From Deltaproteobacteria bacterium (GTDB lineage: Bacteria > Desulfobacterota > Dissulfuribacteria > Dissulfuribacterales > QOAL01): a stretch of DNA of 64,000 nucleotides. Shown piece after piece: positions 8,735 to 42,815 of the stretch. Below the pieces are notes generated by a model. The model was not told the origin of the DNA. It ran no database searches and saw nothing but the letters and a program-made list of their open reading frames with translations. The stretch is taken from the NCBI GenBank assembly GCA_024275145.1, contig JAJRZR010000044.1, positions 863-64,862 on the forward strand. The letters are read 5' to 3'. Both the position numbers and the translations under genes were made by a program. Each line of letters begins with the position of its first letter. Within the stretch, counting starts at the first letter, position 1.

Positions 8735-8767
8735 ATCCCAAATTACGTACTCTAAAGACCGAACAAA
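8735..8767 (+). repeat. Solo head of the intergenic repeat family
   Basis: ATCCCAAATTACGTACTCTAAAGACCGAACAAA matches the heads at 14285, 42455, 42815 (rc) and 33037 (rc). Confidence 0.6.
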
Positions 8768-8795
8768 CACCCCTTCTTCCATTTAAAGCAGTTAT

Positions 8796-8919
8796 CCCGG
8801 ATTATGCAGCTCGAGAGTTTGCCGGAGATGCAAGGCATCAGGGGCGCAGACATACTTAGGTATTTCAAATCCCTGATAATGCAGCAGATTCGGCAAACTT
8901 GCTAGCTCCATAATCCGGG
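8796..8919. repeat. 124-bp palindromic short form of the intergenic repeat family
   Basis: 29-nt imperfect inverted termini CCCGGATTATGCAGCTCGAGAGTTTGCCG / CGGCAAACTTGCTAGCTCCATAATCCGGG. These termini match the ends of the long copies. Confidence 0.65.
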
Positions 8920-9126
8920 ATTGAGGCCGAGTCACTGGCTGGATCATTACAGACCGCCTACTCAGGGCCTTGGGGATGGACCTGAGGTTACAGACAAATC
9001 TGGCCAACCTTGCTAGGCTCTTTACAGGATCTTTAGAAAATCGTCTCTAAAAATCTTTATGCGGCCGGTACTTTGGTACCGCATCTCGTGCTAAAGCCTA
9101 AATGAACTTACATCGCAGGAGGAGTA

Positions 9127-10395
9127 GTGGCACACCTTTTACATCACCCTCTATGGGCCCAGTTCTTGATCGTTACCCTGGCTGGCTTCATGATCGGTCT
9201 TGAAATGAAAAGTTACCGGATGCGCGTCCATCCGGACACCTCCAGGCAGATCGGAACAGCCAGGACCTATACCTTCATTGCCATCATGGGTTTTATCTTC
9301 CAGATGATAGGGACCGAACTCTATCTGATAGGATTTGTGATGCTGAGTGCCCACTTTCTGTTCTATTACTGGCACAAACTCCGCCAGGACCGGCTGGGGA
9401 TTCTAAGTTTCCTTGTGGCCTCTCTGGTCTATGGATTTGGCATACTGATCAACCAGTTTCCGATCTGGATCTTCGCTCTGCTATTTGTGGCCGTCATCTT
9501 TATCCTGAACGCAAAGGCCCGCATCAATCTATTTGTTGAGGCTATCGATCCCCAGGAGATCGAAACCTTTGCCAAGCTGATCCTGCTCAGCGCTGTCATC
9601 TTGCCGCTACTGCCCAATAAACCCATCTCACCCTACTTGCCCATCTCAGCATTCAAGATATGGCTTGCAGTAGTGGTGGTGTCCTTGATCTCCTATGTGG
9701 GCTACATTCTGGAATCCTATTTTTTCAAGGCCAAGGGATACTTTCTCACAGGCATCCTGGGTGGCCTCTATTCAAGCACGGCCGCCACCATCGTCCTGGC
9801 GAAGAAAAGTGCCGAAGCCAGGGGTGGTGCCAACATCTTCGCCGCATCCATTATCATTGCCACTACAGTGATGTACCTCCGGCTTTTTGTGATCGCCTTC
9901 ATCTTCAACCACACCATCGCAATCGACATTTCCCGAAACCTGGTGGCCCTGTCACTTTTGTCGGCAGGTATAGCATGGGGCTTCTATGCCAAGAGAAAAA
10001 TCAAGGGCAAAGAGGACCCGATTACTACCCAATCGAACCCATTGGAATTACCCACAGCCTTTCTGTTCGCCTTTCTATTCGTAGCCATGGTATTTGTCAC
10101 ACACATCGTTTTACAGCATTATGGCAATACCGGGCTCAAGGTCCTTTCCTTCATCGTGGGATTCACCGATATCGATCCCTTTATCGTGTCTATACTCACC
10201 TCCAAATTCCGGATAACCACCACAGAGGCTGGAAGCGCCATCCTCATCGCTGCAGGAAGCAACAATATCCTCAAGGCCCTTTACACCTGGTTCTTCAGCT
10301 GGAAAAGAGCCGGGATGCACAGTGCTGTTACATTGATAATACTGGGTATACTGACCATCGCCGCGGGGCTTTTCCTGCCCCACTATCATCTGTGA
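9127..10395 (+). CDS. MgtC/SapB-family membrane protein with DUF4010-like C-terminal half
   Basis: 422 aa, polytopic. The N-terminus GLEMKSYR...IGTARTYTFIAIMG resembles the MgtC domain. Confidence 0.5.
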   Translation: MAHLLHHPLWAQFLIVTLAGFMIGLEMKSYRMRVHPDTSRQIGTARTYTFIAIMGFIFQMIGTELYLIGFVMLSAHFLFYYWHKLRQDRLGILSFLVASLVYGFGILINQFPIWIFALLFVAVIFILNAKARINLFVEAIDPQEIETFAKLILLSAVILPLLPNKPISPYLPISAFKIWLAVVVVSLISYVGYILESYFFKAKGYFLTGILGGLYSSTAATIVLAKKSAEARGGANIFAASIIIATTVMYLRLFVIAFIFNHTIAIDISRNLVALSLLSAGIAWGFYAKRKIKGKEDPITTQSNPLELPTAFLFAFLFVAMVFVTHIVLQHYGNTGLKVLSFIVGFTDIDPFIVSILTSKFRITTTEAGSAILIAAGSNNILKALYTWFFSWKRAGMHSAVTLIILGILTIAAGLFLPHYHL

Positions 10396-10403
10396 GGGAA
10401 AGA

Positions 10404-11705
10404 ATGAAAAAAAAGGCATTCGGACTCTGGAGTGCAGTTTTTCTGGGAATTGGGTCCATGGTAGGGGCCGGGATATTTATAGTCATAGGCCAGGCGGGTG
10501 CAATTGCAGGCAATCTCGTCTGGCTAACGTTCCTCATAGGGGGTATCATCGCATTGCTGAGCGGCTATTCCCTTTCCCAACTGGCCCTGCGCTATCCCAG
10601 CCGAGGTGGGATAATCGAATACCTGGTGCAGTGCTATGATGAAGGATTCTTTTCCGGTTCTATGGGGGTACTTTTTTATCTCTCCCAACTTGTGGCACTT
10701 GCAGCTGTGGCCAAGAGTTTCGGCACCTATGCCGCTACATATATGACCAGTGGGCATCAGATATGGGCCAACGTATTTGCAGTGGGAATTATTGCCCTCT
10801 TTACCCTTATAAACCTGGTGGGCGCAGCCTGGGTGGCACGCAGTGAAAATACCATAGTCGTTATCAAACTGACCATATTGCTGGTTTTCACCATTGCCGC
10901 CCTCTTTTATGTAGACCCCACACATCTCCGGCTCGCCGATGCTCCATCGACAATGAACCTCTTCTATGCCCTTGGACTGGTTTTTTTTGCCTATCAGGGC
11001 TTCAGCGTGATCACCAACAGCGTGGAAGACATGGTCAACCCCAGGAGCACCATGCTAAAATCCATGGCCGTCGCCATAATCATAGTAGCAATCCTCTATA
11101 TTGGTGTATCTATCGTTGTCTTAGGGAATCTGTCCATGGATGAAGTAATCAAGGCAAAAGACTACGCATTGGCCGAGGCTGCCAAGCCGGCCTTTGGCAA
11201 ATTGGGTTTCAAGATAATGGCCGCAACCGCCCTGATCGCCACAGCCAGCGCGATCAATGCTACATTATATGCAGTAAGCGAGATCAGCTATACGCTGGCT
11301 AAAAACGGGTCGTTACCCAAGGAATACGAATATCATGTATTCAATAATACCGAGGGATTGCTTATCAGTGCCGCATTGATCGTCCCTGCAATCCTGTTCA
11401 TGACCCTTGATCAGGTAACCACCGTGGCCGCCATTGCCGTACTGCTGATCCAGGGTTTTACCCATGTGGGTCATCTCCTCAAACGCCGTGAAACCGGAGC
11501 CAATCCCCTGCTCATAATAGTGGCGATTCTCGGCATGTTTAGTGCCGCCTTTATCGCCATTGATTTTACCCGGAAGCAACTACCTAATATCATATATTAT
11601 ATATTTGGAGCCTTCTTCATGGCGTACATGCTGGAAGTGATATTACGATTGACTGTTGGCAGGATAATCAGAAAGACAAGCCGGCATAAAAATAAGATCC
11701 AATGA
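10404..11705 (+). CDS. APC-superfamily amino-acid permease
   Basis: MKKKAFGLWSAVFLGIGSMVGAGIFIVIGQA... with about 12 helices. The 681-aa ORF-track frame is an artefactual upstream extension. Confidence 0.8.
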   Translation: MKKKAFGLWSAVFLGIGSMVGAGIFIVIGQAGAIAGNLVWLTFLIGGIIALLSGYSLSQLALRYPSRGGIIEYLVQCYDEGFFSGSMGVLFYLSQLVALAAVAKSFGTYAATYMTSGHQIWANVFAVGIIALFTLINLVGAAWVARSENTIVVIKLTILLVFTIAALFYVDPTHLRLADAPSTMNLFYALGLVFFAYQGFSVITNSVEDMVNPRSTMLKSMAVAIIIVAILYIGVSIVVLGNLSMDEVIKAKDYALAEAAKPAFGKLGFKIMAATALIATASAINATLYAVSEISYTLAKNGSLPKEYEYHVFNNTEGLLISAALIVPAILFMTLDQVTTVAAIAVLLIQGFTHVGHLLKRRETGANPLLIIVAILGMFSAAFIAIDFTRKQLPNIIYYIFGAFFMAYMLEVILRLTVGRIIRKTSRHKNKIQ

Positions 11706-12248
11706 ACCTGGATTGCCTCCCTTTCATCCCAAACCTTCCTGTCCCCTGGGGCGCAGCCTGGGACATATAGAACGTATGGAAGAGAGATACCCACTGTAGC
11801 CTTTCTACATCGTCTCCGGTGCAAGGCGTGGATTGGTTCGTGGAATTTCGAGATATGACAAAGATTCAAGATGAGCTTCTTGCACCTTGAGATATATATG
11901 GATGCAAAGATGCTGTTGAAATAGCTACATGGATACGTCTCCCAGCAGAAACACGGGAGAAATAGGACATGGATATCCTACAGGTATTCCCTGTACTTAC
12001 TTTCTAGCTTGCCTCCTTGGCAAATTTACGGACTTCATGATCTGATTCCAAGGTGGGCAAGGCGTTGAAGATGCCAAGATTAATTGACAATTACCGCAAA
12101 AGACTATAAGAAAAAATTATTGAAGGTTCTTGGCCGGGTTGTTGATCTATAAGGAATTTCAAGGAAACTAGGTTGGCACCTGTTACGATCCTGGAGAACC
12201 GGGGGAAAGCCAGTCTGGACCTTGACCGTAATCGAAGAGGAGGGGATT

Positions 12249-14168
12249 ATGAAAAGGGTATTCTTAGGTCTGCTTCTGCTTGGAATCACTTACTGTTTCA
12301 TCACGGATTATGCCTTTGGTTTTGGCAAGGATATAGAAATATATTCTGGTGACATAAATATATTCGATGTAGATTATGGTAAGGATTCCGGCTACATTAT
12401 CGTAGCCTTTCAAAAAAAGGATGAAGATGGAATCGAGGTATATCGTTCGCAGGACCACGGCTATACATGGCAAAAGGCCTCTGTTGACATCGCGGCCCCG
12501 AAGAATCTCTCCCGTATAAGGGTTTGTGCCGACAGCTCAGGCGACGCTGCAAGCGTATACCATGTGGATGAAAACGGCTATCTGTATGTCAGTTTCACCA
12601 CATGGAGCACCGTACAGCCTGTAGTGGTCCTTGCCCCGATCAAGATCAGCGATACCCCCATCGTCGAAACAAGCTTTGACGTGGTGGACAACCCTACCGA
12701 GAACCGACGCATTGTCGTATGGTCAACAGGTACCGGCACCAACTCGAAACAACAGATGAAATACTCCTATGGACTCAGCTGGAGCAGCTGGGTAGACTGG
12801 TATTGGGATGGAGGCGGGGCAAGGGAGGACCTTGCCTATACCCCTGGCAGTTCGGATGGCTATATCCATTGGGTTTATAGTAGCCTTGAATATGGCTCCA
12901 CCGAAGAGATTACATACTTCAGGTTCCCTAGCCTTGGCAACTTATATGACAAAAAGATCCGCTTGACCTCAAACAGCGTAAAGGACTATGACCCGAGGGT
13001 AGCTGGAGTTAATGATGACAATTCCACCGTATGGGTGGTCTATAACAGGGATGACGGAAACCACGAGATTGATCTCTATTACCGTTACAGTTTGGATGGA
13101 GGTGCGACTTGGCAGCCCAACGAGTACGCGGTCTCAAAGGTTACAGGGGTGGATGAATATATTGCAGATATAAAATTCTACAAATACTATCCGAACGGTT
13201 GGGTGGATATGGTCTATATCTATGATGATCCAGCGGGTGATCCGGTCAGGAAGGCCATCTGGTGTTATGCATCGGCCAGTGACCCCACAAACTGGCGTGG
13301 GAAATACACGATAAACGACCAAGACGTTCAGGCATGGCCCGAGGATAGCGCACCTAGGATCGTATATTCCCCAGGAGCGCCGGCAAGTGGAGGTGGGGTG
13401 GTATTTTCATACGCAGGAAGACACGGCCTCTATTTCGATGCTCCATGGAACCACACGCTCACGGTCACGGTAAGTGGATCAGGCAAGGTAGTCAGCTCCC
13501 CTGCAGGCATCGATTGCAGTTCGGATAACATTACCAACTCCACCGTATGCAATGCCTCCTTTGCAAATAATACAGCGGTTGCACTGAATGCAACGCCCAT
13601 AGACGGTGACACCTATACATCTTATTTCATCGATTGGGGAGGAGATTGTTCTGGTTCCAGCACATCCTGCGCACTCTCGATGGATGACGACAAGAGCGTT
13701 ACAGCGAACTTTGGGGCCCTGGGCATACCGGTATTTGCCCTGTCACCACCCACCAGCCAGGAGAGCTGGACCTATCCGCCGGTCGTAGATCCTGTAAAAC
13801 AACCGTATGCCAAGGATTGCAGGCCCTTTGCTGTTGGAGATCTTACAACGGGTAATATCACGCTCAAGGTAGGGCTGCCTCCATTTGCAGATGCAGTGGA
13901 TGTCTATCTCGGCCTTTATTTTCCGACGATTGATCCCGACAATGTCTATCTGATTACGACAGGGAATAATATTCAGCCGATATCAGCAGGCTTTACACCA
14001 TTGAAGGCAAATGTCTCCGGTACGGATATAGACGAGACCCTGTTCAGCAACGTTTCCATGTCAGCATTGCCTTCAGGCACCTACTACATGTGTGTAATGG
14101 TAACCCCGGCGGGGACAACGGATTTGAGCGCTTACTACCTTTGGATTACATATTTCGTGGTCCCCTGA
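12249..14168 (+). CDS. Secreted BNR/Asp-box (sialidase-like) repeat protein with InlB-B-repeat-like domain
   Basis: Signal peptide MKRVFLGLLLLGITYCF after a GAGGAGG RBS. Asp-boxes SQDHGYTW and SLDGGATW. TLTVTVSGSGKVVSSPAGIDC...FIDWGGDC..C...VTANF. Confidence 0.6.
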   Translation: MKRVFLGLLLLGITYCFITDYAFGFGKDIEIYSGDINIFDVDYGKDSGYIIVAFQKKDEDGIEVYRSQDHGYTWQKASVDIAAPKNLSRIRVCADSSGDAASVYHVDENGYLYVSFTTWSTVQPVVVLAPIKISDTPIVETSFDVVDNPTENRRIVVWSTGTGTNSKQQMKYSYGLSWSSWVDWYWDGGGAREDLAYTPGSSDGYIHWVYSSLEYGSTEEITYFRFPSLGNLYDKKIRLTSNSVKDYDPRVAGVNDDNSTVWVVYNRDDGNHEIDLYYRYSLDGGATWQPNEYAVSKVTGVDEYIADIKFYKYYPNGWVDMVYIYDDPAGDPVRKAIWCYASASDPTNWRGKYTINDQDVQAWPEDSAPRIVYSPGAPASGGGVVFSYAGRHGLYFDAPWNHTLTVTVSGSGKVVSSPAGIDCSSDNITNSTVCNASFANNTAVALNATPIDGDTYTSYFIDWGGDCSGSSTSCALSMDDDKSVTANFGALGIPVFALSPPTSQESWTYPPVVDPVKQPYAKDCRPFAVGDLTTGNITLKVGLPPFADAVDVYLGLYFPTIDPDNVYLITTGNNIQPISAGFTPLKANVSGTDIDETLFSNVSMSALPSGTYYMCVMVTPAGTTDLSAYYLWITYFVVP

Positions 14169-14178
14169 GCCCTATAGG

Positions 14179-14200
14179 TGCAGGCCCCCAAGGGCCTGCA
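14179..14200 (+). terminator. Terminator-like GC hairpin after the BNR gene
   Basis: TGCAGGCCC-ccaa-GGGCCTGCA, followed by a second palindrome CCCGGTTAACCCGGG. No clear T-tract. Confidence 0.35.
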
Positions 14201-14284
14201 GCCCGGTTAACCCGGGATAATCCTGGCTCAATTAAGATCCCCCAGGGAAACCCCTGATGTATTCCCATCGACCAGCCAGGTATC

Positions 14285-14490
14285 ATCCCAAATTATGTAC
14301 TTCAAATGCCGAACAAAAATATTGTTCCTTAAATTTCAAGATGTTATAAGCAAGGGACCGTTTTCGTTTTTTCACCTAAAAGGTGCAAGCAAAATGCAAT
14401 GAAGTTGTTCGGCATTTGAAGCCGCAAGGGGCTCGAAAGTTTACCGAGTGCTGCTTGCCAAAGACCGGTATGACGTAGAATCCAGTCCAG
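14285..14490 (+). repeat. Full-length copy of the structured intergenic repeat family
   Basis: Head ATCCCAAATTATGTACTTCAAATGCCGAACAA, conserved GTTATAAGCAA / TTCACCTAAA / GCATTTGAAGC / AAGTTTACCGA blocks, degenerate tail GTAGAATCCAG. Confidence 0.65.
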
Positions 14491-14767
14491 GGTGATGGTT
14501 TCCATGTCACGAAATCCCCCGCGGATCTTTTTCAATCTCCTGAAATTGATCTCTGCACATGTTCAGCCTTGTGAACCGTGATCCTGGAAAGAAAACGGCT
14601 GATCATGCCTGGGAGGGAAACCTGGTAAGGCCGACCAGCTTTTGAAATACCTTTATGGAGGTGTATCCCCTCGGAGTAAATGTCAGGCTTGCAAAGGGCA
14701 TTGCCTGTGTTTATGGTATTTAAAAAATGTGGACCCGCCTGGATAAAGCAAGGGAAAGGAGTTTTAA

Positions 14768-15373
14768 TTGACACTGATTCAGATTGCCTTGGCAATAGCT
14801 ACTATTTCCTTTGTTTTCCTTGTTGTCTATATAATAAAATTGACGAAGAGCGTTCAACAGACATTGAAGGTGGTCAATGAAGCGTTCAGCGGCGGAAAGG
14901 CCGGGATGGACAAAATTCTGGGACAGATTGAACCGGTCGTAGCCAATCTCTCCCAGCTTGAAGAGATGACCAAGGAACTCATGTCAGGTCTGGACGGGCG
15001 CATCGCCAGACTTGAGGATGAGGTGATCCCTTTGTTGCAGGATTTGAGAGAAACGGCCAAGGCATATCAACGCCTGGAGGAGGGCCTTGAAAGGCGGATT
15101 GAACAGGACGTGCCCCCGCTTCTTGAGGATCTCCATGATATAACGGGAGATATAAAGGAGCTGACCAGTGACATCAAGGGCAAGGTCGAACAGAGCAAGG
15201 CCCTTTTTGATGCCGTGAGGGAAACCGGAGAGACGATGCGGGTCGTTACTGGCATCGTCCGTTCCGGGCTTTCCGGGTTGGCGGTTCAACTGGCCAGCAT
15301 GGCCGTTGGGGCCAGGGCCTCGCTGGAGTTTATAGCTGATAACCTTACCACTAAAGGAGGTGGCAAAAGATGA
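14768..15373 (+). CDS. DUF948-like membrane-anchored coiled-coil protein
   Basis: N-terminal TM helix followed by a long helical repeat region. Start overlaps nothing; stop overlaps the YtxH gene start. Confidence 0.5.
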   Translation: MTLIQIALAIATISFVFLVVYIIKLTKSVQQTLKVVNEAFSGGKAGMDKILGQIEPVVANLSQLEEMTKELMSGLDGRIARLEDEVIPLLQDLRETAKAYQRLEEGLERRIEQDVPPLLEDLHDITGDIKELTSDIKGKVEQSKALFDAVRETGETMRVVTGIVRSGLSGLAVQLASMAVGARASLEFIADNLTTKGGGKR

Positions 15374-15744
15374 GTTGCGAAGGAAGATTTTCTGCTGGTA
15401 GTGTTGCATTGTCATTTTTACTTGGAAGCGCTGTCGGGGCTGGTCTCGCGGTCTTGCTGACACCCAAATCCGGTCCAGAGACAAGGGAATTTATACGGGA
15501 ACAGGCCTATTCCGCTCGTGGCGAGGCGCTCAAGGTGGCCGATGACGTGAAGGACAAGGCCTCTGAACTTTTGGATAAGAGCAAGGAGGTTGTTGAGCAG
15601 AAAAAGGCAATCCTTGAATCGGCTTTAGAGGCCGGGAAGGCCGCCATGGAGCGTGAGAAGGAACGTCTGATTGCTAAGATCAAGAAAGAAGAGGAAGAGG
15701 GACTGGCCGGAGAGGCAACGGCTGGGGAAGGCCCCGAGGCATAA
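15370..15744 (+). CDS. YtxH domain-containing protein
   Basis: LLGSAVGAGLAVLLTPKSGPETREFI motif followed by a charged helical tail. Confidence 0.7.
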   Translation: MSCEGRFSAGSVALSFLLGSAVGAGLAVLLTPKSGPETREFIREQAYSARGEALKVADDVKDKASELLDKSKEVVEQKKAILESALEAGKAAMEREKERLIAKIKKEEEEGLAGEATAGEGPEA

Positions 15745-15771
15745 GGGAGAGAGTTGGCCTTATATTATAGC

Positions 15772-15846
15772 GGGAGCGCCCCCTGTTCATCCCTGAAGAA
15801 CGCCAACAAGCATGGTATATGAAAGGGATGAACAGGGGGCGCTCCC
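15772..15846. terminator. Perfect 23-bp inverted repeat between convergent genes (possible bidirectional terminator)
   Basis: GGGAGCGCCCCCTGTTCATCCCT (15772-15794) and its exact complement (15824-15846), with a 29-nt loop. Confidence 0.35.
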
Positions 15847-15980
15847 TGATAAGGACTGTGGCCGCGCACCATATAGGCTTCCAGCATCAATTTTCTATTA
15901 TGCAGGCCCTTGTTGGCTGAGCCAAACAGGATCTTGTTGCATTGGAGATCGTGGAAAGTTGCTGGGCTGTCTCTGCAGGC

Positions 15981-16802: not shown

Positions 16803-16834
16803 GTGGCTTGGAGATTGGTGTCGGTCTTTTGGGA

Positions 16835-24271: not shown

Positions 24272-24274
24272 AGG

Positions 24275-25489: not shown

Positions 25490-26008
25490 GGATGCTCCTT
25501 GGTCAACCTTTAATGGGGATCGTACCCCCAAGATCTCAACCCGTTCCATTTATGGGACACGTGCCTTCCAAAAAGGATATTGGCCCTTTGGAATGCAAGG
25601 GGAACGAGGGAGGTATCATCTCAAACCCCTGTCGATGGTTTTCAGGGACAAATACGGGGACGATCCCATTTCCAGGTAGTAAAAATGCAATAATGGGGCC
25701 TTAAAAATAGAATCGGCCAATAGGCATAAAAACTTTATGGACCATAAAAAGCCGGATTTCTATAGCGCTTGAATTTGTTATAGGTAGCAAGGTAGAAGGC
25801 GCAGATATGCCTGGGTGCTTCACCCCCTGAGAATTCAGCGGATCTGGTAGGGTTGCAATCCCCTTGCGGCATCAAACGTCTTGCCATCGGGCCGTGTTTT
25901 CAATGCCCTTGGGCTACGGCGGAGAAGGGTTGGGTTTGAAGCCGTAGACTTTCGGGGCCGCAAGGCCGATATCTTACAGGTGGCCCTGGGTCATGTCTTC
26001 ACGATGGC

Positions 26009-30832: not shown

Positions 30833-30834
30833 AC

Positions 30835-32772: not shown

Positions 32773-32808
32773 TAATATTTCTCCAATCTTGCTATGTCCT
32801 TCTTTAAA

Positions 32809-33037
32809 CCCAAATTATGCAAGTCGCAAGTTTACTAAAGATGCCAAGCAAAGGAGGCGTAGAACGTACTTTGGTACCTCATGACATCGCCAGTAGATTT
32901 GGTGAAATTGCAAGCCCCTTGTAACTTCAAATGTCTAACAAATTTGATCGGATTCCAAGGTGCCGTCCAAATAAATATCTATAGGTGCTCATAACGCTTT
33001 AAAAAAATGTCCGGCACTTGGAGTGTATAATTTAGCC
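32809..33037 (-). repeat. Full-length copy (inverted orientation) of the structured intergenic repeat family
   Basis: Begins CCCAAATTATGCAAGTCGCAAGTTTAC, matching the rc of the tail of copy 42455-42709. Ends ...CACTTGGAGTGTATAATTTAG, the rc of the head. Confidence 0.6.
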
Positions 33038-33495
33038 TGATCCTGCCTCTGGACCGTATCTTCCCGTCCTTGTGGTGCGGCATCACTATACGGGCGGGGC
33101 CGCATGAAGGTTTGGGTTGAAGGCCCCATATATTACAGCAAACTTGACACTGAGCAAATAGGACTGATAATAAAACATATAATATGAGAGGGGGAACTGG
33201 TATTTTTTGTTAGCTGGGTTTTTTGATTTCGATAAGGGTGTCTCTAAAAAAACCTTCATGCAACCCGTACCTAAGGATGCCCTTCCCAGTAACCGACTAC
33301 AGGGTTATTGCTAAAAATTGTAAAAGTTCTTGATCCATATGCGGTTACAGGCGTACATATCCAAGGCGGAAGGCACGCAGACATGCTATCCCCGTACCTG
33401 AAGTGTATGACTACACGGTAGATGTATGTCCTGTGATTGCATGCTTTTACATGTATACCAGGGGTTCATCTAAAACGCCTATCCAGGAGGAAAAA

Positions 33496-33951: not shown

Positions 33952-34264
33952 GTCCTTATGCCTGCCACGGGCTGTTTGTACAGGCGGCTCCAGGCATGAA
34001 GATACAACTAGAGGCCTCTGAAAAATTTCCCCTTTTGTCCGGTAGCCGCGTCGATACCGAGTGGATATGCCCTCATGCGTTCCAGGTATGCTGCGCCTTT
34101 TCGCCTTCTCGACGCCCTGCTCTCGAACGAAACAATTACTTTTCAGGGGTCTCTCCTTTTGATGTCCAACATTCCCAGTAATAAGATCCAAGGGCCCGTT
34201 GTTTCCAGGAATCCGTTCATCCTTCCAAGGAAAGGCCCTATAGCTTACCGTTCTATTTAGGCCT

Positions 34265-36907
34265 TTGTCTGGCACCTTAGATAAAATACACCCTTCTACT
34301 ATAATCACCGCCCACTTGAATGCAGATTTTGATGCGCTTTCATCGGCATTTGCGGCAAGCAAGCTCTATCCCGATGCGGTTATAGTCCTTCCTGGTTCCC
34401 AGGAGAGAGGCCTGCGGGAGTTTTTTTTGAGATCAGGAGGTTATTTTATAGATGTAAAGAAGATGAAGGATGTGGATTTGGATCGTCTAAAGCGCCTGGT
34501 GATTGTGGATACGAAGCAGAAGGGCAGACTTGGTCCGCTGGCAGAGCTTGTAGACAGGCCCGGCATAGAACTCCATGTCTTCGACCATCATCCATCTGCC
34601 CCAGGCGACATAGAGGCGGCGCAGACCGTCTTCAGGCCTGTTGGGGCAAACGTAACCATCATGGTAGATCTCTTGAGAGACAAGGGGCTTCCCATAGGCC
34701 CGGACGAGGCCACTTTCTTGGCCCTCGGTATATATGAAGATACAGGTTCCTTCACCTTCAATTCTACTACCCCGGATGACCTGCGGGCGGCTGCCTGGTT
34801 GCTGGAGAAGGGTGCAGACCTCAAGACCATATCCGAGCTCCTGGGACACAGGTTTACCCCTGAGCACGTTGGCCTGCTCGACGATCTCTTGAGTACCGCC
34901 GCCACCTATACCATGGCAGGGATACCAATAACTGTTGCAAAGACGAGTTCCCCCAATTATGTGGAGGATTTTGCGGTGCTGGCCCATGAACTCATGGACA
35001 TGGAAAAGCTGCCGGTCGTCTTTGCCTTGGCGCTTATGGCGGAGCAGGTGTTGATAGTTGGTAGGAGTAGGATCGACGCGGTAGATGTCGGCAAGGTCCT
35101 GAGGGCACTGGGAGGCGGTGGACATCCAATGGCCGCCTCGGCCTCGCTCAAGGGTGTCACCCTTGCAGAGGCAGAGGAGATGCTTGTCTCCGAGCTTCAG
35201 CGCCAGATAGGAACACAGCCCAAGGTCAGGGACATAATGTCAAGGCCGGTGATCTCGGTAGGACCGGGAACCCCTCTATATGAGGTGCACGATGTGCTCA
35301 CCCGTTATGGGATCTCTGTGGTTCCCGTGGTTCAGGAGGGCAAGGTGATTGGCCTGATCTCGAGGCGTACGGTTGAAAAGGCCATTTACCATGGCCTTGC
35401 AAAGCTTCCTGTAACTGAATACATGGGTACAGACTTCCAGGTGGTCGGTCCCGAAGATACCTTTGACAGGGTACAGGAACTCATTATCGAAAACCGGCAA
35501 CGATTTGTCCCGGTAGTCAGTAATGGGAGGGTAACAGGGGTGATCACCAGGACAGATCTGCTCCAGATACTTGGTGGTGACCCATCCAGGCAACCAGAAC
35601 CCCTGCTTAGCGCAAGGGAGCAGCGCAGGAATATCTCATCGCTTCTCAGGGAGAAGCTCCCGGGTCATCTACTCGATTTGCTCAGGACTGCAGGGGAAGT
35701 GGCGGAGCAGATGGGGTGCCAGGTGTATGTGGTTGGCGGGTTTGTGCGGGATTTGTTGTTAAGGAGGCAGAATTACGATATCGATCTGGTGGTTGAAGGT
35801 GACGGCATTGCCTTTGCCGAGAGGTTTGCGGAGAGATACGGAGGTAAGGTGCGTGCCCATGAAAAGTTCGGTACCGCAGTGGTGATATTGCCGGACGGAT
35901 TCAAGGTGGACGTCGCAACTGCCCGCCTTGAGTATTATGAATACCCTGCTGCAATGCCCACGGTTGCCCTTTCTTCCATAAAGCTTGACCTCTTTCGGAG
36001 GGATTTTACCATCAATACCCTTGCCGTGAAGCTCAATCCCAAGGAATTCGGGTTGATGATCGATTTCTTTGGCGGCCAGAGGGACATAAAAGACAGGATA
36101 ATAAGGGTGCTCCACAGCCTTAGCTTCGTGGAGGATCCGACCAGGGTCTTCAGGGCCGTTCGCTTTGAACAGCGTTTTGGGTTCAGGATCGGCAAGCACA
36201 CACTCAGGCTTATCAAAAATGCGGTTTCCCTGGATATATTTTCCAGGCTTTCCGGCAAAAGGCTCTTGACCGAATTGCGTCTCATACTGGAAGAGCAAGA
36301 TCCGAGGCCGGTTATAAGGCGCATGGCCCAGCTCGACCTGCTGAGGGCCGTGCATCCAGCCATCCGGTATACCACAAGGTTACGGAAGGTGCTCAATCGT
36401 ACATATGATGTCCTGACCTGGTATGAACTCCTCTACCGAACCGAGAGACCTGAAAAGTGGATGGTATACCTGATGGCGCTTCTGTCTCAGCTTAAGAAGG
36501 GGCAATTGAAAGAGGCACTTGATAGGTTGGGGCTTTCTGGACGAAGGTATGTTATATTTACGGAAGGGGTTTTCAGTGGGCTTGCGGCCTTGGACTATTT
36601 GACCAAAAAGATAAGCTTGAGGCCAAGCCAGGTCTTCTTGTCACTAAGAGAACTCAAACTGGAGGTGCTCCTCCATCTCATGGCCCGAACGGATAGCGAG
36701 CAGGCGAGGCATAGGATCTCCAGGTTCATAACGGAATTCAGGCGGGTAAGGCCGATACTTTCCGGCAAGGATCTAAAGGCCCTGGGGCTTGAACCTGGCC
36801 CGGTATTTCGCCAGATATTGGAGCGACTCAGGCTTGAAAGGCTCGACGGAATGATCAAGACGAGGACGGATGAGATATCCCTCGCCAGGTCCTATCTCAA
36901 GGCATGA
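34265..36907 (+). CDS. DHH/DHHA1 - CBS pair - poly(A) polymerase/CCA-adding nucleotidyltransferase multidomain protein
   Basis: HLNADFDALSS (DHH), GGGGH (DHHA1), two CBS motifs, VYVVGGFVRDLLL...DIDLVV nucleotidyltransferase head. Confidence 0.75.
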   Translation: MSGTLDKIHPSTIITAHLNADFDALSSAFAASKLYPDAVIVLPGSQERGLREFFLRSGGYFIDVKKMKDVDLDRLKRLVIVDTKQKGRLGPLAELVDRPGIELHVFDHHPSAPGDIEAAQTVFRPVGANVTIMVDLLRDKGLPIGPDEATFLALGIYEDTGSFTFNSTTPDDLRAAAWLLEKGADLKTISELLGHRFTPEHVGLLDDLLSTAATYTMAGIPITVAKTSSPNYVEDFAVLAHELMDMEKLPVVFALALMAEQVLIVGRSRIDAVDVGKVLRALGGGGHPMAASASLKGVTLAEAEEMLVSELQRQIGTQPKVRDIMSRPVISVGPGTPLYEVHDVLTRYGISVVPVVQEGKVIGLISRRTVEKAIYHGLAKLPVTEYMGTDFQVVGPEDTFDRVQELIIENRQRFVPVVSNGRVTGVITRTDLLQILGGDPSRQPEPLLSAREQRRNISSLLREKLPGHLLDLLRTAGEVAEQMGCQVYVVGGFVRDLLLRRQNYDIDLVVEGDGIAFAERFAERYGGKVRAHEKFGTAVVILPDGFKVDVATARLEYYEYPAAMPTVALSSIKLDLFRRDFTINTLAVKLNPKEFGLMIDFFGGQRDIKDRIIRVLHSLSFVEDPTRVFRAVRFEQRFGFRIGKHTLRLIKNAVSLDIFSRLSGKRLLTELRLILEEQDPRPVIRRMAQLDLLRAVHPAIRYTTRLRKVLNRTYDVLTWYELLYRTERPEKWMVYLMALLSQLKKGQLKEALDRLGLSGRRYVIFTEGVFSGLAALDYLTKKISLRPSQVFLSLRELKLEVLLHLMARTDSEQARHRISRFITEFRRVRPILSGKDLKALGLEPGPVFRQILERLRLERLDGMIKTRTDEISLARSYLKA

Positions 36908-36982
36908 GGTCCCCTGCCATCGTTCATCAGATGCCTGCCTTACCTGAGGTTCTTTGTATATAAAGTAAACAGAAACCGGGAT

Positions 36983-37630
36983 ATGATTGACATTGCAGAA
37001 ACCATACAGAAAATTGCCATACTGACACCGCCCATCCTGATGGCGGTCACTGTCCATGAGATGGCCCATGGATGGGTCGCATACAGGTTAGGGGACCCAA
37101 CGGCAAAGGCCATGGGAAGGCTCACGCTCAATCCCTTGAAGCATCTGGATCTTTGGGGAACCTTGGCCTTTTTTATCACGCAGGCCATAGGTTGGGCAAA
37201 GCCCGTACCTGTGAATCCTGCCTATTTCAAGAATCCAAAGGTGGATATGATATGGGTATCCCTTGCCGGGCCAGCGGCAAATATACTGCTCGCCATTGTC
37301 AGCGCGGCTATTCTCAGGCAAACCATATGGCCCCTGAGCCTTTGGTTGCAGTCCTCTGGGTATATCCTCAGGCCACTTCTCTATATGGCCTATGTGAGCA
37401 TACAGATCAACCTGGGCCTGGCGGTTTTCAACCTGATTCCGATTCCGCCTCTTGACGGTAGCAAGATCTTTATGGGACTGCTTCCCAGGAATTTTGCAAT
37501 ACAATACAGCAGACTCGAACCATACGGCTTCCTGCTCATATTGGCCTTGATCTTTACAGGGGCCATACACCGGATTATAGTCCCGCTGATTTTTTCTTTG
37601 AATCATATCCTTATTGGAAATATTCTCTAA
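36983..37630 (+). CDS. M50 site-2-protease-family zinc metalloprotease
   Basis: HEMAHG motif and NLIPIPPLDGSK. Confidence 0.8.
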   Translation: MIDIAETIQKIAILTPPILMAVTVHEMAHGWVAYRLGDPTAKAMGRLTLNPLKHLDLWGTLAFFITQAIGWAKPVPVNPAYFKNPKVDMIWVSLAGPAANILLAIVSAAILRQTIWPLSLWLQSSGYILRPLLYMAYVSIQINLGLAVFNLIPIPPLDGSKIFMGLLPRNFAIQYSRLEPYGFLLILALIFTGAIHRIIVPLIFSLNHILIGNIL

Positions 37631-37642
37631 GGCAGGTCTTAG

Positions 37643-38656
37643 ATGTCGGAACACAAAAGACAGCGGGTATTGAGCGGTATGCGCCCCTCTGGTAAATTGC
37701 ACCTCGGACACCTGCACGGTGTGCTGAGCAACTGGAAAAGGTTGCAGGACACCTACGATTGTTTCTTTTTCGTAGCGGACTGGCATGCCTTGACCACCAA
37801 TTACGAAAGGCCTTACGAGATTCCAGCAAACATTGATGAAATGCTCCTGGATTGGCTTGCTGTGGGTATCGATCCCGAGAAGGCGACCATCTTTGTGCAG
37901 TCGGAGATAAAGGAACATGCCGAGCTTCACCTACTTCTGTCCATGATCACCCCACTTTCCTGGCTTGAACGCAATCCTACCTATAAGGAGCAGCGTCAAG
38001 AGTTAAAGGAAAAGGACCTGGCCACGTACGGTTTCCTTGGTTACCCGGTGCTCCAGTCTGCCGATATCATCATGTACAAGGCCAACAAGGTCCCGGTCGG
38101 TGTGGATCAACTCCCCCACGTGGAACTTACCCGTGAGATTACCCGGCGATTCAATTACCTCTATGGTGAGGTATTCCCAGTGCCCGATCCGCTTCTGGCA
38201 GAGGTTCCAAAGCTTCCAGGGCTGGATGGCAGGAAGATGAGTAAGAGTTACGGGAATGCCATCTTCCTATCCGATCCCCCAGAAGTAGTGGAAAAGAAGG
38301 TAGCCACCATGGTCACCGATATTGAGCGCCCTAGACGTTCCGATCCTGGTGACCCAGAAAAGAGGTGTGTGGCCTTCAATCTCCACAAGCTCTATCTTTC
38401 CAGGGAGAGGCTTGAACAGATCATAGATGATTGTAAGTCCGCAAGACTCGGTTGCGTCCAGTGCAAAAGGGAGCTTGCCCATGCAATCATCGAGGCCTTG
38501 AGTCCCATATGGAAACGCCGTGAGTCCCTGGCCGCCAGGCCTGAGAGGGTCAAAGAGATATTGGCCCTTGGTGCAAAGAGGGCCAGAGGAGTGGCGGCAG
38601 ATACCATGTCCCAGGCGAGGAGCGCCCTGTGGACCCGGAATGTCAGGTCAGATTAA
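37643..38656 (+). CDS. trpS: Tryptophan--tRNA ligase
   Basis: SGMRPSGKLHLGHLHG (HIGH) and KMSKS motifs. Confidence 0.92.
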   Translation: MSEHKRQRVLSGMRPSGKLHLGHLHGVLSNWKRLQDTYDCFFFVADWHALTTNYERPYEIPANIDEMLLDWLAVGIDPEKATIFVQSEIKEHAELHLLLSMITPLSWLERNPTYKEQRQELKEKDLATYGFLGYPVLQSADIIMYKANKVPVGVDQLPHVELTREITRRFNYLYGEVFPVPDPLLAEVPKLPGLDGRKMSKSYGNAIFLSDPPEVVEKKVATMVTDIERPRRSDPGDPEKRCVAFNLHKLYLSRERLEQIIDDCKSARLGCVQCKRELAHAIIEALSPIWKRRESLAARPERVKEILALGAKRARGVAADTMSQARSALWTRNVRSD

Positions 38657-39390
38657 ATGCCTTTGAAGGCCCTTTGGACCTTCTTCTTCACCTTATTAAC
38701 AAGAATAAGCTGGATATCGCCGATATCCCCATCTCCCTTGTCACCAATCAGTACCTGGAGTACCTGGAGCTGATGAAGGCCTTGGATATAGTGGTGGCAG
38801 GAGAGTATCTGGTCATGGCTGCAACCCTTATGCACATCAAGTCCAGGATGTTGCTGCCAAGGCCTGAGGATAGCGAGGCATCCGAAGACCCTCGGCTTGA
38901 GATAGTCAGGCCGCTTCAGGAGCTGGCCATGGTGAGGGAATTGGCAAATGCACTGGATAGCAGGCCGGTGCTGGGCAGGGACGTATTCGTCAGGGAGCAG
39001 GCCCTGGCCCTCGATGGCCGGATCGGACTGGAGGATGGGATCCATGGTAAAGTGGATGCCACGCTGCATGCGTATACGTGCGAGGCAGGCCTTGCAGATC
39101 TATTGACCGCCTTGAAGCGTGTCCTTGGACGACAATCTTTGCCAAGGGCAATAGAAATAACGAGGGCCCGGGCAACCCTTTCCGAAAGAATGGAGAGCCT
39201 GTCCAGGGAACTCGATATGAGAGGACACCTCAGTTTCTTTGAATTGTTTCCGGTTTCTGACCGATCCTTTATCATAGTTACCTTCCTTGCCGTTCTTGAA
39301 CTTGCAAGGCAGTCGATTGTAAGGATAGTACAGGAAGGGGAGGGCAGGGATATAAGGATATTCAAGAGGTCCCGCCAGGCTGCCCCCTGA
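38629..39390 (+). CDS. scpA: Segregation and condensation protein A
   Basis: FEGPLDLLLHLI...DI.I..VT.QYL signature. Confidence 0.85.
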   Translation: MDPECQVRLNAFEGPLDLLLHLINKNKLDIADIPISLVTNQYLEYLELMKALDIVVAGEYLVMAATLMHIKSRMLLPRPEDSEASEDPRLEIVRPLQELAMVRELANALDSRPVLGRDVFVREQALALDGRIGLEDGIHGKVDATLHAYTCEAGLADLLTALKRVLGRQSLPRAIEITRARATLSERMESLSRELDMRGHLSFFELFPVSDRSFIIVTFLAVLELARQSIVRIVQEGEGRDIRIFKRSRQAAP

Positions 39391-39511
39391 ACTTCTTGCG
39401 GCAGTGCCCGATGTTTTCCCTTGCAAGGGCTCCCTGTCTCGTTAGGGATCGATACGGCTCCAAGAGGGCGCAGACGGTATATGTGAACCTCCACCAGATT
39501 GGGCGATATAG

Positions 39512-41791
39512 CTATCGACCTGTACCCCAGCCCCCTATACCCAGGAGTTCCAGATGTAGGGTTATGCTGGTTTCATAGTTGTCGTGCTTTAGCCTGCCCT
39601 CCAGCGCCCAACAGTTTGACTGGTAACGAAGCCCATAGGTGGATTCCAGCTCGCTTCTCTTCGCAAAGGATTGCTTCAGGTGATAGATTCCATACCACGA
39701 TGGAGAAATCACTGCCCACAAATCCAGGTTTAATTCGTTGATGTCCGTAAGATCGTGATAACGGTAGACGATGTCCAGACGATCCCCAGCAGTACTGCCA
39801 AGATGTGCCAACAGGTTATAGGTAGTGAACCCCTTTCCATAGAAATTATAGGTGGTGTCGTACCTAAGGAAATATTTTGGATCAGGCCTGAACTCCAGCT
39901 CTGCATAGGCATCTGACAGGGGCCTCCTTTTCGTTCCATGGGGCAAGGCCCTTATACTTTCCCTGATATCGAAACGCTGCCTGAACACGAAGCGTACTAT
40001 ATCGGCATAGGCATAACGGTCTCTGCCAATGGTCCTTTTAGTGCTCAGAAAGGAGAGCAGGGATAATGTGATACGGTTTAGCGGCTCCAGCCTGTCTATA
40101 CCGAAATGTTCCGATGTCTCGAGGGCAGTGATATAAGAGGTGTGATCCAATGACTCCGAGCCGCCGGCAACATCTATTTCTGGTATGTCTTTTTGGTTTT
40201 TAGGAGGGCGATATTCGTAGGTAAGCCTTGGCCTTATAGTATGACGCATGGTCAGGGTGGCAGATGGGTGGTAAAGCCGTGCAAAGCTCTTGCTGGCATC
40301 TGCCTCCAGTTTATACAGCAATCTATTCTTGGTGTTGGCAGGTTCCTTGACCTCGTGGCTGGATCCACCGGCATGGCTGTGTCCGCTGGTCTGGTAGAAG
40401 GTCTCCTCTATGGTGGTGCTAAGAAGCAGATTGGCCCACCCGGCCATATCAATCGGCAGAGATATCCTGGGGGCAAGGTGTATCCTTTGTTCCCTGGAAC
40501 CCGCCTCACGCCAATAATTTACATAGGAGGCCTCTCCATCATAGAATAACGGGGTGTTGAGAAGCCTTGTTCGGAAACCATGAAGGACAAACAGGGGTAT
40601 CGTCTGTATGGTCTGGTCCTGCTTCCCCTCCTGATTGTCGTTGTATCGACCCTCTGAACCGATGAAGCTGTCCAGGTAGTTCCTGGTGATTTGCAGGGTT
40701 GAGGGCCGGTTGAGATCCGTATCGTCCACCAGTGAGCGGTCAAAGGCCTTTCTGAAGGTCCTGTTGGTCTTTGTGTAGCCCATAGGGCCATAATCGAACT
40801 CCTGGAGATAGTCCCGATCGCTGACCATGTCGACGTCCAGTTTTGCCTGGAATCCGAGCGGTAATTGCTGGTTAAGCTTGCCCCTTAGCCACCATCGCTT
40901 TTCGTTTCCCCTTATGATCTTGTCGTTGTTGTAGTCTCGGTCTTCCTTGGTATCCACCAGGTAATTGAAACGAAAGATACCCTTGTCTCTGTCTGAGAAT
41001 ACATGCCTGAACTCTATGCCTTCCATCCATCCCCTGTTGGACATGATGTGTTGATAGAACGTGGCATCCATACTGTCGTTTATGGCCAGGAAAAATGGTA
41101 TATTTATACCTGTACCATTCCTTTTGGTGGTGGAAAAATAGGGCAAGAGGAAGCCTGTCTTGCGGTATTTGTTTATTGGCATTACCACCCAGGGGGAATA
41201 AAATACGGGAATATTTCTTATATTGAATGTCGTGTGCCTGGCCACCGCGTTGCCGGCAATCGTAAGCCTCAAATCCCGGCATCTTATACTCCATGCCTGC
41301 CTGGGCAGTGGGCAGGTGCTGATGGTGGCCTCCTCTGCCTTGTATTCTTCTGGGCCGGTCTTCCACAGTTTCCCTGCAGTCAGGTGTATGTTGTTTCTTT
41401 GCAGGAACAGATGGGCGTTTTCTACCGAGCCGGTCCGGGTCGCCAGGTTCAATTCCCCCTCGCTACCGTTGAGCACGTCCTGTCCCATGTGGATTACGAC
41501 CGATCCATTGGCCTTTACCTTTTCATGGATCTTATCATACAGGATGGTATCTGCGGAAATTCTGAGGTTGCCACGCCAGACCTTCACCCCGCCCTGGGCC
41601 AGAATAACGCCGGTATCCTGGTAGAAGGTCATACGCTCTGCCTTGATATGCCAGGGCTCGCTGCGGTATCCCTGTCGGGATGTCCCGGGTGCTGTGGAGC
41701 AGAGTCCGGGGGAGTAGCCTGCCATCGATAATACGATGAATGACAAGGTGGAGAGAAACCCTATTTTTAGAAGAAGGGGTAGGTGATTCAT
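39512..41791 (-). CDS. lptD: LPS-assembly outer-membrane protein LptD
   Basis: Signal peptide, OstA-like N-domain, large beta-barrel, 759 aa. Confidence 0.8.
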   Translation of the reverse strand: MNHLPLLLKIGFLSTLSFIVLSMAGYSPGLCSTAPGTSRQGYRSEPWHIKAERMTFYQDTGVILAQGGVKVWRGNLRISADTILYDKIHEKVKANGSVVIHMGQDVLNGSEGELNLATRTGSVENAHLFLQRNNIHLTAGKLWKTGPEEYKAEEATISTCPLPRQAWSIRCRDLRLTIAGNAVARHTTFNIRNIPVFYSPWVVMPINKYRKTGFLLPYFSTTKRNGTGINIPFFLAINDSMDATFYQHIMSNRGWMEGIEFRHVFSDRDKGIFRFNYLVDTKEDRDYNNDKIIRGNEKRWWLRGKLNQQLPLGFQAKLDVDMVSDRDYLQEFDYGPMGYTKTNRTFRKAFDRSLVDDTDLNRPSTLQITRNYLDSFIGSEGRYNDNQEGKQDQTIQTIPLFVLHGFRTRLLNTPLFYDGEASYVNYWREAGSREQRIHLAPRISLPIDMAGWANLLLSTTIEETFYQTSGHSHAGGSSHEVKEPANTKNRLLYKLEADASKSFARLYHPSATLTMRHTIRPRLTYEYRPPKNQKDIPEIDVAGGSESLDHTSYITALETSEHFGIDRLEPLNRITLSLLSFLSTKRTIGRDRYAYADIVRFVFRQRFDIRESIRALPHGTKRRPLSDAYAELEFRPDPKYFLRYDTTYNFYGKGFTTYNLLAHLGSTAGDRLDIVYRYHDLTDINELNLDLWAVISPSWYGIYHLKQSFAKRSELESTYGLRYQSNCWALEGRLKHDNYETSITLHLELLGIGGWGTGR

Positions 41792-41836
41792 GTCACAATG
41801 AGGTTAGTATCATAAGGCAGGTGGAGTTTCAATTGC

Positions 41837-42454
41837 TTATGGGCCCAACATGGTAAAAAGCATTATCAGCAATCCACCGGCAAGAAGGCACCAATCCAAC
41901 GGCCGATATCTTGGTAGTGTCAATCCGCTGAATATTACCAGCAAGAGCATGGCGCAGAAGACGTCCGACAATACCACCCATGCCATGTGGGTTTTGAAGG
42001 CCTTGTGGAGGTTGTTGAGCCAGGTCCATGGCTGTCGATATCTTTTGTCTATGCGAAGCATCCTACCATCTCTGGGGTGGATAATATAGGTAGTTTTGCC
42101 ATGGGAACCATAGAGAAATTCAATGGACTCGTCTCCACGTATGCGTATTACCGTTGGATCATCCATCCGGTTGATCTGCTTTTTGTACATGTCTATGAAC
42201 GTTCTCATCACGGACGTGTCTGAGGTGGGTACACTGGATACGGTGACATCCTTTGCAATGAAGAAGGCAAAATACCTCCTGTGATTCAATAGTATACCGG
42301 TAAGACAGTAAAAAATTACAAGCCCTGCCACAACAAGGCCAATCCATCGATGTATTTTTCTCCAGGAGCGTTTGTTGAGCAGGTCAAGGTGTGTCATAAT
42401 CAAGACCTTTCCCGATACATTCTTTGATGCGGAATAAATTCGATCGGCTTTCAA
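41837..42454 (-). CDS. PepSY-associated TM-helix membrane protein
   Basis: WRKIHRWIGLVVAGLVIFYCLTGILLNH motif. The start is possibly at the internal Met (42397). Confidence 0.45.
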   Translation of the reverse strand: MKADRIYSASKNVSGKVLIMTHLDLLNKRSWRKIHRWIGLVVAGLVIFYCLTGILLNHRRYFAFFIAKDVTVSSVPTSDTSVMRTFIDMYKKQINRMDDPTVIRIRGDESIEFLYGSHGKTTYIIHPRDGRMLRIDKRYRQPWTWLNNLHKAFKTHMAWVVLSDVFCAMLLLVIFSGLTLPRYRPLDWCLLAGGLLIMLFTMLGP

Positions 42455-42709
42455 CCCGAATTATGCACTTCAAATGTTGAATAAATAAAATTGTGCTAAA
42501 AATTACAAGAGGTTATAAGCAAATCAGCATCCTCTTCGGTTCACCTAAAGATACATCAACTTCTTAACGAAATCATCCAGCATTTGAAGCTACATGGGGC
42601 CCTCAAGTTTGCCGAAATGACTGCGTTGTCGGGTACTTGAAGTACACAAGTAGGTCTTGCGTGTCCTCCGCCTTGCATCTTCGCTAACTTGCGAACTGCA
42701 TAATCCGGG
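42455..42709 (+). repeat. Full-length copy (255 bp) of the structured intergenic repeat family
   Basis: Termini CCCGAATTATGCA / TGCATAATCCGGG are inverted repeats. The internal pair ACTTCAAATG / CATTTGAAG and the conserved blocks are shared with 14285-14490. Confidence 0.7.
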
Positions 42710-42782
42710 TTCAAAGTACCATTTAGTTGAACATCCATGTATATTAAATGCGCACAACTGTTTTAAATAAAAGAAAAATTAT

Positions 42783-42815
42783 TTCTGTTCGGTGCCTGAA
42801 GTACTAATTTGGGAT
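42783..42815 (-). repeat. Solo inverted head of the intergenic repeat family, 16 nt upstream of the radical-SAM start codon
   Basis: The rc reads ATCCCAAATTAGTACTTCAGGCACCGAACAGAA. Confidence 0.6.

Follow-up and report, generated by a model that had tools for sequence, protein, structure and literature searches.

A 64-kb stretch of DNA (64,000 nt, positions 863–64,862 of contig JAJRZR010000044.1, assembly GCA_024275145.1; termed the window) from a Deltaproteobacteria bacterium contains nine full, truncated or fragmentary copies of one family of repeats, and all of them are intergenic. The repeats are thought, at a probability of roughly 0.85, to be a ~255-bp non-autonomous DNA transposon, i.e. 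a miniature inverted-repeat transposable element (MITE), derived from an insertion sequence (IS) of the IS1380 family. Copies in the window were scored with an nhmmer profile built from 66 full-length copies of other genomes.

The sole full-length copy in the window is copy B (positions 42455–42709, plus strand, 255 bp; nhmmer E = 2e-46, model positions 1–255). It has the terminal repeats CCCGAATTATGCA and TGCATAATCCGGG, and a perfect 5-bp duplication (TTCAA) lies on either side of it, at positions 42450–42454 and 42710–42714. Copy I (42715–42813, minus strand) abuts copy B. It is a ~100-nt 5′ fragment that includes the head, the loop and a remnant of a hairpin with the sequence TCACC (nhmmer 42813 to ~42717 against model positions 1–104), and its outer end is 17 nt upstream of the ATG of a radical-SAM gene. 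An earlier reading of the letters of this DNA (the original prediction) had listed an inverted “solo head” at 42783–42815, but this is in fact the fragment that extends from 42813 to ~42715 on the minus strand. The same reading had placed a copy directly against the start of the radical-SAM gene; this is borne out, and copy I is the copy in question.

Copy C (32809–33037, minus strand) is nearly full with 229 bp (nhmmer 33033–32809, E = 1e-28). It has a short deletion in the left loop and a degenerate left terminus (GCT, not CCC), and its duplication is gone. The start of an aconitase gene (Pfam aconitase match) is found 36 nt downstream of its right end. Copy F (33359–33423, minus strand), a right-half fragment of 65 nt (E = 5e-7, model positions 162–223), is situated at the start of a universal-stress-protein gene. 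Copy E (25752–25901, minus strand), a decayed right half (nhmmer 25881–25760, E = 3.5e-10, model positions 124–247), is upstream of a gene for type II secretion protein F (Pfam T2SSF match). Copy A (14287–14448, plus strand) consists of the left 162 nt only (E = 2e-28, model positions 1–162) and is cut directly after …TTTACCGA.

Copy D (8796–8919) is a palindromic short form of 124 bp, made of two facing right ends, each with a terminal repeat and a right-hand hairpin arm (nhmmer 8909–8796 corresponds to model positions 142–255, E = 2e-28, and 8884–8919 to model positions 220–255). A repeat search also finds it as an inverted repeat. Copy H (8737–8767, plus strand), a head fragment directly beside copy D, gives a weak nhmmer signal (E = 0.09), but 25 of its 31 positions are identical to the head consensus, compared with 19–21 for the best match in shuffled windows; a solo head had been predicted near here, at 8735–8767, and it is real. 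Copy G (7149–7354, minus strand) is badly decayed and is detected in two pieces (7354–7204, E = 3e-5; 7149–7214, E = 1e-3) just downstream of an integron integrase gene.

The six loci of the original prediction are real, as both direct reading and a mechanical repeat search reproduce their common termini and blocks. Some of their extents need correction: the homology of copy A ends at 14448 and not at 14490. The list was also incomplete, since 25881–25760 and 33423–33359 (both minus strand) and 7149–7354 had been missed. BLASTN with the 255-bp copy recovers the other three main loci at ~68%–75% identity, and a 33-nt core pattern is matched at three places in the window but is absent from 100 shuffles. 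The window copies are ~70% identical to one another and mostly truncated, and the duplication is kept by only one. They are old, inactive relics.

The family is found well beyond the window. The core pattern matches 54 loci in other genomes and the head pattern more than 104; together these loci come from at least 22 assemblies of metagenome-assembled genomes (MAGs). The hosts are nearly all Desulfobacterota or Thermodesulfobacteriota from hydrothermal vents. In one MAG (JALVJO01), 20 loci match the 33-nt core pattern and further loci match the head pattern only. MAG S143_34 (WFZW01) is the nearest relative of the window, with 80% aa identity in the radical-SAM protein. Viral contigs scanned with the head pattern gave no match. 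The sequencing runs that hold a MAG copy are vent DNA metagenomes only, with no RNA run among them. There is also one match each in a MAG labelled Lentisphaera (locus L077) and in a MAG labelled Thiomargarita (L121), and an IS1380 element of Clostridia type is present in a MAG labelled Micrarchaeota, an archaeon (L253). The presence of family copies, or of the IS1380 element, in these unexpected MAGs represents either horizontal transfer or binning contamination.

Copies are bounded by 13-bp terminal inverted repeats, CCCGGATTATGCA…TGCATAATCCGGG, and across 58 copies 677 of 754 cells in these repeats show Watson-Crick pairing. The terminal repeats, an internal pair ACTTCAAATG/CATTTGAAG and the conserved blocks are as described in the original prediction. 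Among the blocks, TTCACC…GGTG and the core GGGGC…TTTACCGA are family-wide, but GTTATAAGCAA is limited to the subfamily of this genome. The element is non-coding, with no conserved frame, which also agrees with the prediction.

A search for target-site duplications had been proposed. It shows perfect 5-bp direct flanks in 62 of 109 distinct head-to-tail elements, while 2000 shuffles of the right flanks give 5.0 on average and at most 15. W-T-N-A-W is the consensus of the duplicated pentamers, which include ATTAT, TTTAA, TTCAA, TTTAT and TTGAA, among others. It follows from these duplications that the copies reached their sites by transposition.

Elements range in size from 51 to 285 bp and fall into discrete size classes of ~255 bp (the majority), ~148, 124 and ~79 bp. 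In the ~148-bp form two heads face each other and the terminal repeat is perfect over 27 bp; in the 124-bp form, which includes copy D of the window, two tails face each other; and in the ~79-bp form the first 24 nt of the head are joined to ~55 nt of the tail. Each of these forms has been amplified. At least seven occurrences of the ~79-bp form have the same junction. This form has therefore itself transposed, and movement does not require the internal “structured” region. Many copies are truncated at arbitrary points.

Comparison of related genomes shows insertion polymorphism. Loci syntenic with the window (L052, L038 and L086) carry copies at different positions, and the closest relative has no element upstream of its radical-SAM gene; homology resumes exactly at the outer end of copy I. 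An alignment of filled and empty sites against the syntenic loci gave no base-exact empty site, because the intergenic DNA is too diverged. A MITE was one of several possibilities in the original prediction, and it is the one that terminal inverted repeats, 5-bp duplications, amplified deletion forms and insertion polymorphism between genomes bear out. There is little doubt that the repeat family is a MITE.

Several copies have an unusual context. At L032 (~460–470) and L013 (1128–1580), copies are split by other insertions, which are nested in the AT-rich loops of the element. L113 (JALVRI010000525.1, minus strand) displays a 3052-bp element in which the head and the core plus tail are 3 kb apart and have a common perfect TTCAA duplication. 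It encloses an open reading frame resembling, by eye, a D-aminopeptidase (DppA), together with an ABC-type ATPase open reading frame that is homologous to an open reading frame adjacent to a MITE in L008. This could represent cargo capture by a non-autonomous element, like that of the IS1380 “transposable modules”, or a rearrangement or an assembly chimera. Paralogous ATPase genes with AAA_14 and DUF4143 domains recur in five MITE-bearing loci (L012, L075, L103, L109 and L130), and in L012, L103 and L109 the gene starts ~5–80 nt outside the MITE head. According to Pfam these are not transposases.

The ends of the MITE point to the IS1380 family. Members of this family, as described by ISfinder, have ends beginning with CC, a short terminal repeat and a 4–5 bp duplication. 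The MITE fits this description (CCC…GGG, a 13-bp repeat and a 5-bp duplication), as do the autonomous IS1380 elements that were examined.

ISEcp1 provides one example. Its left end was confirmed with 42/42 identity in 3644 plasmid records, and annotated ISEcp1 encodes an “IS1380-like element ISEcp1 family transposase”. The ISEcp1 left end reads CCTAGATTCTACGTCAGTACTTCAAAAAGC… with TTCACCCATTGGGTGAA at nt 75, and the MITE left end reads CCCGGATTATGCACTTCAAATGCC… with TTCACCCAAAAGGTGAA at nt 85. In addition, ISEcp1 has a subterminal CTTCAAA motif in both ends and CTTCAAAAA inside both at unequal distances, a layout like that of the MITE.

A second example comes from a profile search of genome contigs, which returned Bacillota elements only. 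An element on a Ligilactobacillus plasmid (L. acidipiscis, 1.62 kb) and ~60 further IS1380-family elements from Bacillota are 1.62–1.75 kb long and have the terminal repeat CCTGAATTATTCA. The right ends in L252, an element of Proteiniclasticum sediminis, and in L253 are CCCGGATTATTCA and CCCGAATTATTCA, which are 12/13 identical to a MITE terminus. Of 59 Bacillota elements, 36 have a perfect 5-bp AT-rich duplication. ISEcp1 and the Bacillota subgroup are similar to the MITE in ends that start with CC (CCYGRATTMT…), where the MITE terminus matches the Bacillota elements at 11–12 of 13 positions and ISEcp1 at 8 of 14, and in the 5-bp AT-rich target duplication. They differ in that the MITE has no transposase gene, is 255 bp and not 1.6–1.75 kb long, and resides in Desulfobacterota of hydrothermal vents. 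The right half of the MITE, a long hairpin built on GCTCGCAAGTTTGCCGAA, also has no counterpart in this subgroup.

A further similarity is a TCACC-loop-GGTGA hairpin. It is found at nt 74–77 of the Bacillota left ends and ~75–100 nt inside the MITE, and it lies 74–86 nt from the left terminus when the MITE is compared with the ISEcp1/Bacillota subgroup as a whole. In an alignment of four MITE copies with six autonomous elements from three phyla (alignment A4), the only invariant columns are the terminal positions and this hairpin. IS1380 left ends from Gammaproteobacteria and Bacillota (L172, 2201–2400; L174, 582–740; L194–L253) display the hairpin as TCACCC-loop-GGGTGA at nt 74–77. An A-rich run comes next, and then a TRTGNTAAAGT-like stretch, which is possibly the −10 element of the transposase promoter. 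To our knowledge, no role has been described for the IS1380 left-end hairpin.

Metagenome contigs were also scanned for the MITE terminal repeat with the reverse complement of a back-translated E..IKE transposase motif 462–492 nt inward. The scan gave eight loci, seven of which are full-length elements (L255–L259, L261 and L262), with a length of 1595–1666 bp for the six that have both ends on the contig. They have exactly CCCGGATTATGCA at one or both ends and encode IS1380-type transposases (tblastn E = 1e-32 to 1e-69). The original prediction had stated that a full-length IS with the same termini would make the copies ordinary MITEs; at the family level such elements exist, and these seven are examples. 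They establish the family of the MITE, though not its direct parent. Together with the comparisons above, they make an IS1380-family origin of the MITE quite probable.

By analogy with the family, a DDE transposase encoded elsewhere would bind the 13-bp terminal repeats CCCGGATTATGCA…TGCATAATCCGGG and probably also a repeated subterminal motif, ACTTCAARTGCC. Insertion into AT-rich W-T-N-A-W sites would proceed by a 5-bp staggered cut that leaves the 5-bp duplication. The TCACC-loop-GGTGA hairpin would be inherited from the untranslated left end of IS1380-type elements. The enzyme that mobilises the MITE would be an IS1380-family transposase. The parent sought would carry a gene for such a transposase, bounded by the left end CCCGGATTATGCACTTCAAATG… and the right end …TGCATAATCCGGG, and a 5-bp duplication would flank it.

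IS1380 is a bacterial relative of the eukaryotic piggyBac element, and its transposases have been used as the prokaryotic outgroup of piggyBac (PMC10813416). Like the MITE, piggyBac has 13-bp terminal repeats of the form CCC…GGG, asymmetric subterminal repeats and a T-T-(N)-A-A-like target. However, piggyBac duplicates 4 bp (TTAA) and the MITE 5 bp, and the likeness is architectural only.

The same ends and flanks bear on two other kinds of mobile element. One is a REP/REPIN element, proposed in the original prediction, which would be moved by a RAYT (an IS200/IS605-like Y1 transposase); the other is a Tn3-derived miniature element (TIME). The palindromic architecture, the intergenic position and the high copy number are alike in REPINs, and Tn3-family elements, too, typically have a 5-bp AT-rich duplication. 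However, REPINs have REP palindromes of 20–35 nt and no target duplication, while 13-bp terminal repeats and 5-bp duplications are found here. Tn3-type ends are ~38 bp and start with GGGG, whereas the 13-bp ends of the repeats begin with CCC and agree with IS1380 ends at as many as 13/13 positions. The left-end hairpin is common to the MITE and to IS1380 elements, and no Y1 or Tn3 transposase was seen among the open reading frames of the loci examined. The target duplications and the IS1380-type ends exclude the REP/REPIN-like reading, and this whole class of explanation is given next to no weight. A sigma-54 promoter, a group II intron and an ωRNA were also considered and were dropped on reading the sequence, as the spacing is wrong and terminal repeats with duplications point to a DDE transposon.

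The original prediction had further suggested a family of structured small RNAs. On this account (small RNAs or cis-regulatory RNAs), the three-stem fold would be the functional product, and mobility would be secondary or absent. A young copy from a MAG does fold very stably, into a three-way structure of −100.4 kcal/mol (z = −7.6). The outer stem consists of the paired terminal repeats. In the left stem, the head motif ACTTCAAATGCC (nt 13–24) pairs with an internal inverted copy (nt 124–135), and in the right stem the right end pairs with its own internal inverted copy. The head motif occurs a third time (GGGCACTTGAAGTACC), 63–76 nt from the right end. The presence of copies in 5′ intergenic regions and a small GCAA-loop hairpin in the core would also be in keeping with an RNA.

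The stems can be read in another way. The “second stem” is the repeated subterminal motif ACTTCAARTGCC, and the 148- and 124-bp palindromic forms show that either half is able to exist by itself, bounded by a long and perfect terminal repeat. Read most simply, the stems represent former termini and protein-binding motifs that occur repeatedly. The “structure” is the element's own architecture and not an RNA fold.

Several results speak against an RNA. When pairs were counted on hand-defined helices in the 58 copies, most were unchanged Watson-Crick pairs, and among the non-Watson-Crick pairs of the plus strand there are 58 G·U and 186 A·C, so that G·U is not enriched. For the 58 copies, RNAalifold gave essentially no consensus structure, as the left loop is poorly aligned between subfamilies. 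The loop of the core hairpin can be ACAA in place of GCAA, and the 79- and 148-bp forms have been amplified without most of the “structure”. A search of Rfam 15 at gathering thresholds, which had been proposed, yielded no match on either strand of the 64-kb window. No promoter- or terminator-like site is predicted inside copies B or C; the single promoter-like match in the scanned regions, at 33144–33171, is outside copy C. The fold itself is lost in the window's own copies: copy B has z = −3.0 as RNA and −1.2 as DNA, and copy C, with z = −0.6, folds no better than shuffled sequences. Such decay speaks against selection for a structure, be it of RNA or of DNA, in this genome. With arrival by transposition shown by the target-site duplications, a small RNA family is unsupported and is considered very unlikely.

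Several observations weigh against a MITE derived from IS1380. The seven metagenomic elements have subterminal sequences unrelated to that of the MITE, their flanks are YTAR (CTAG-like) and not 5-bp W-T-N-A-W sequences, and they have no TCACC hairpin; therefore they are not the direct parent. The searches made did not find the direct parent, i.e. an autonomous element with the subterminal sequences of the MITE and a 5-bp duplication. With eight IS1380 transposases as tblastn queries, neither a transposase nor a remnant was detected in the window, for which the original prediction had also reported no transposase, or in 171 related loci (~0.9 Mb). Two-sided changes between subfamilies occur at stem positions 25:124, 26:123, 148:239 and 151:236, a pattern that is also compatible with selection acting on a folded strand. 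These changes can result from subfamily ancestry, from recombination of palindromic precursors or from templated quasi-palindrome repair. Finally, the internal core GCCGCAAGGGGC is very conserved, although it is absent from the 148- and 79-bp forms. These forms have been amplified without it, which makes its conservation hard to explain.

Pairs of terminal repeats 1–3 kb apart, sought in 145 loci, were examined as candidate parents and were rejected, as they are neighbouring MITEs around housekeeping genes. Genes between such pairs include an acyltransferase, an O-antigen ligase and a D-aminopeptidase-like open reading frame (by eye only) with an ABC ATPase. When open reading frames of at least 150 aa in the loci were clustered for recurrent genes, sensor kinases, AAA_14/DUF4143 ATPases and chemoreceptors were found, and no transposase.

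A more speculative proposal has two parts. By analogy with the asymmetric subterminal repeats of piggyBac, the TCACC hairpin, whose distance from the left terminus is fixed, and the ACTTCAARTGCC repeats may be cis-elements common to all of IS1380 (transposase-binding or regulatory), which would make the MITE family the first described IS1380-derived MITE lineage, and the conserved core (GCCGCAAGGGGC and the right hairpin) may have a function of its own. Taken jointly, this is tentative and rather doubtful. A core function is considered because the 255-bp form keeps the core although shorter forms transpose without it; the core might boost propagation of the element or act as an RNA.

An observation that relates to the boundary of this region is a break point after …TTTACCGA(A), at model position 162, which is the same in several independent truncated copies: window copy A, L006 and L138, and possibly also L110 and L045. 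The transposase start codon in autonomous IS1380 elements is 152–175 nt from the left end. The break may reflect a hot spot for deletions where the right hairpin begins at its base, or it may mark where the left end naturally stops.

A MITE in which some copies have been exapted is a further possibility. IS1380 members have outward promoters and mobilise flanking DNA (PMC9330008), and strong outward promoters such as those of ISEcp1 and ISPme1 could have a counterpart in the right end of the MITE. This end would then act as an outward promoter or as a 5′ untranslated region and modulate the aconitase, radical-SAM and secretion genes. The right ends of copies B, C and E point at the start of a co-oriented gene 36–200 nt away. 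Among 72 MAG copies, 36 have a gene start and 24 a gene end facing the tail; facing the head, there is a gene start in 28 and a gene end in 35. This orientation bias is weak, however, and is not significant; no sigma-70-like promoter is predicted in copies B or C, and the window copies are decaying without visible constraint. Exaptation of the window copies is possible but unsupported, and as a general explanation it is improbable, though less so than the RNA reading.

The MITE displays similarities to other small repeat families of bacteria. Correia elements of Neisseria, ERIC/IRU, RUP and the Tn3-derived TIMEs (cf. PMC4133298) are likewise small, non-coding, multicopy and intergenic; they have terminal repeats and a duplication, fold strongly and form mosaic and deletion variants. 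They differ from the MITE in transposase family, ends and duplication length. A literature search in an incomplete library found no paper that assigns a MITE to IS1380, and no priority is claimed.

Two features of the window are separate from the repeats. The first is a chromosomal integron at positions 1–6909. Its integrase gene (5881–6909, plus strand) matches TIGR02249, “integron integrase”, with 440 bits (cut-off 265). A divergent array of small open reading frames on the minus strand includes a methyltransferase and an RDD/zinc-ribbon protein. The open reading frames are separated by ~95-nt repeats (3378–3472 and 4980–5074, 95% identical) that start with GCCTAAC, an attC-like inverse core, and shorter relatives at 1547–1599, 2654–2685 and 4245–4274 contain GTTAGGC, an attC-like core. 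The second is a perfect 23-bp inverted repeat at 15772–15846 (GGGAGCGCCCCCTGTTCATCCCT/AGGGATGAACAGGGGGCGCTCCC), with 29 nt between its arms. It is situated between convergent open reading frames and is probably a bidirectional terminator.

The repeat is an ordinary kind of genomic parasite and not a new RNA gene. Transposon debris accounts for nine intergenic stretches of this genome, among them the upstream regions of the genes for the aconitase, the radical-SAM protein, the secretion protein and the stress protein, and these stretches should not be annotated as small open reading frames or RNA genes. The IS1380/piggyBac lineage gains a well-defined MITE family with a clear target preference and a natural deletion series, and the deletion forms show which parts are sufficient for movement, i.e. 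~24 nt of head and ~55 nt of tail. The family has spread through many uncultured lineages of vent sulfate reducers, where it fragments assemblies and could give rise to rearrangements. A small, testable lead on the control of IS1380-type elements is the left-end hairpin that the MITE has in common with ISEcp1; such control matters in practice, since resistance genes are mobilised and expressed by ISEcp1.

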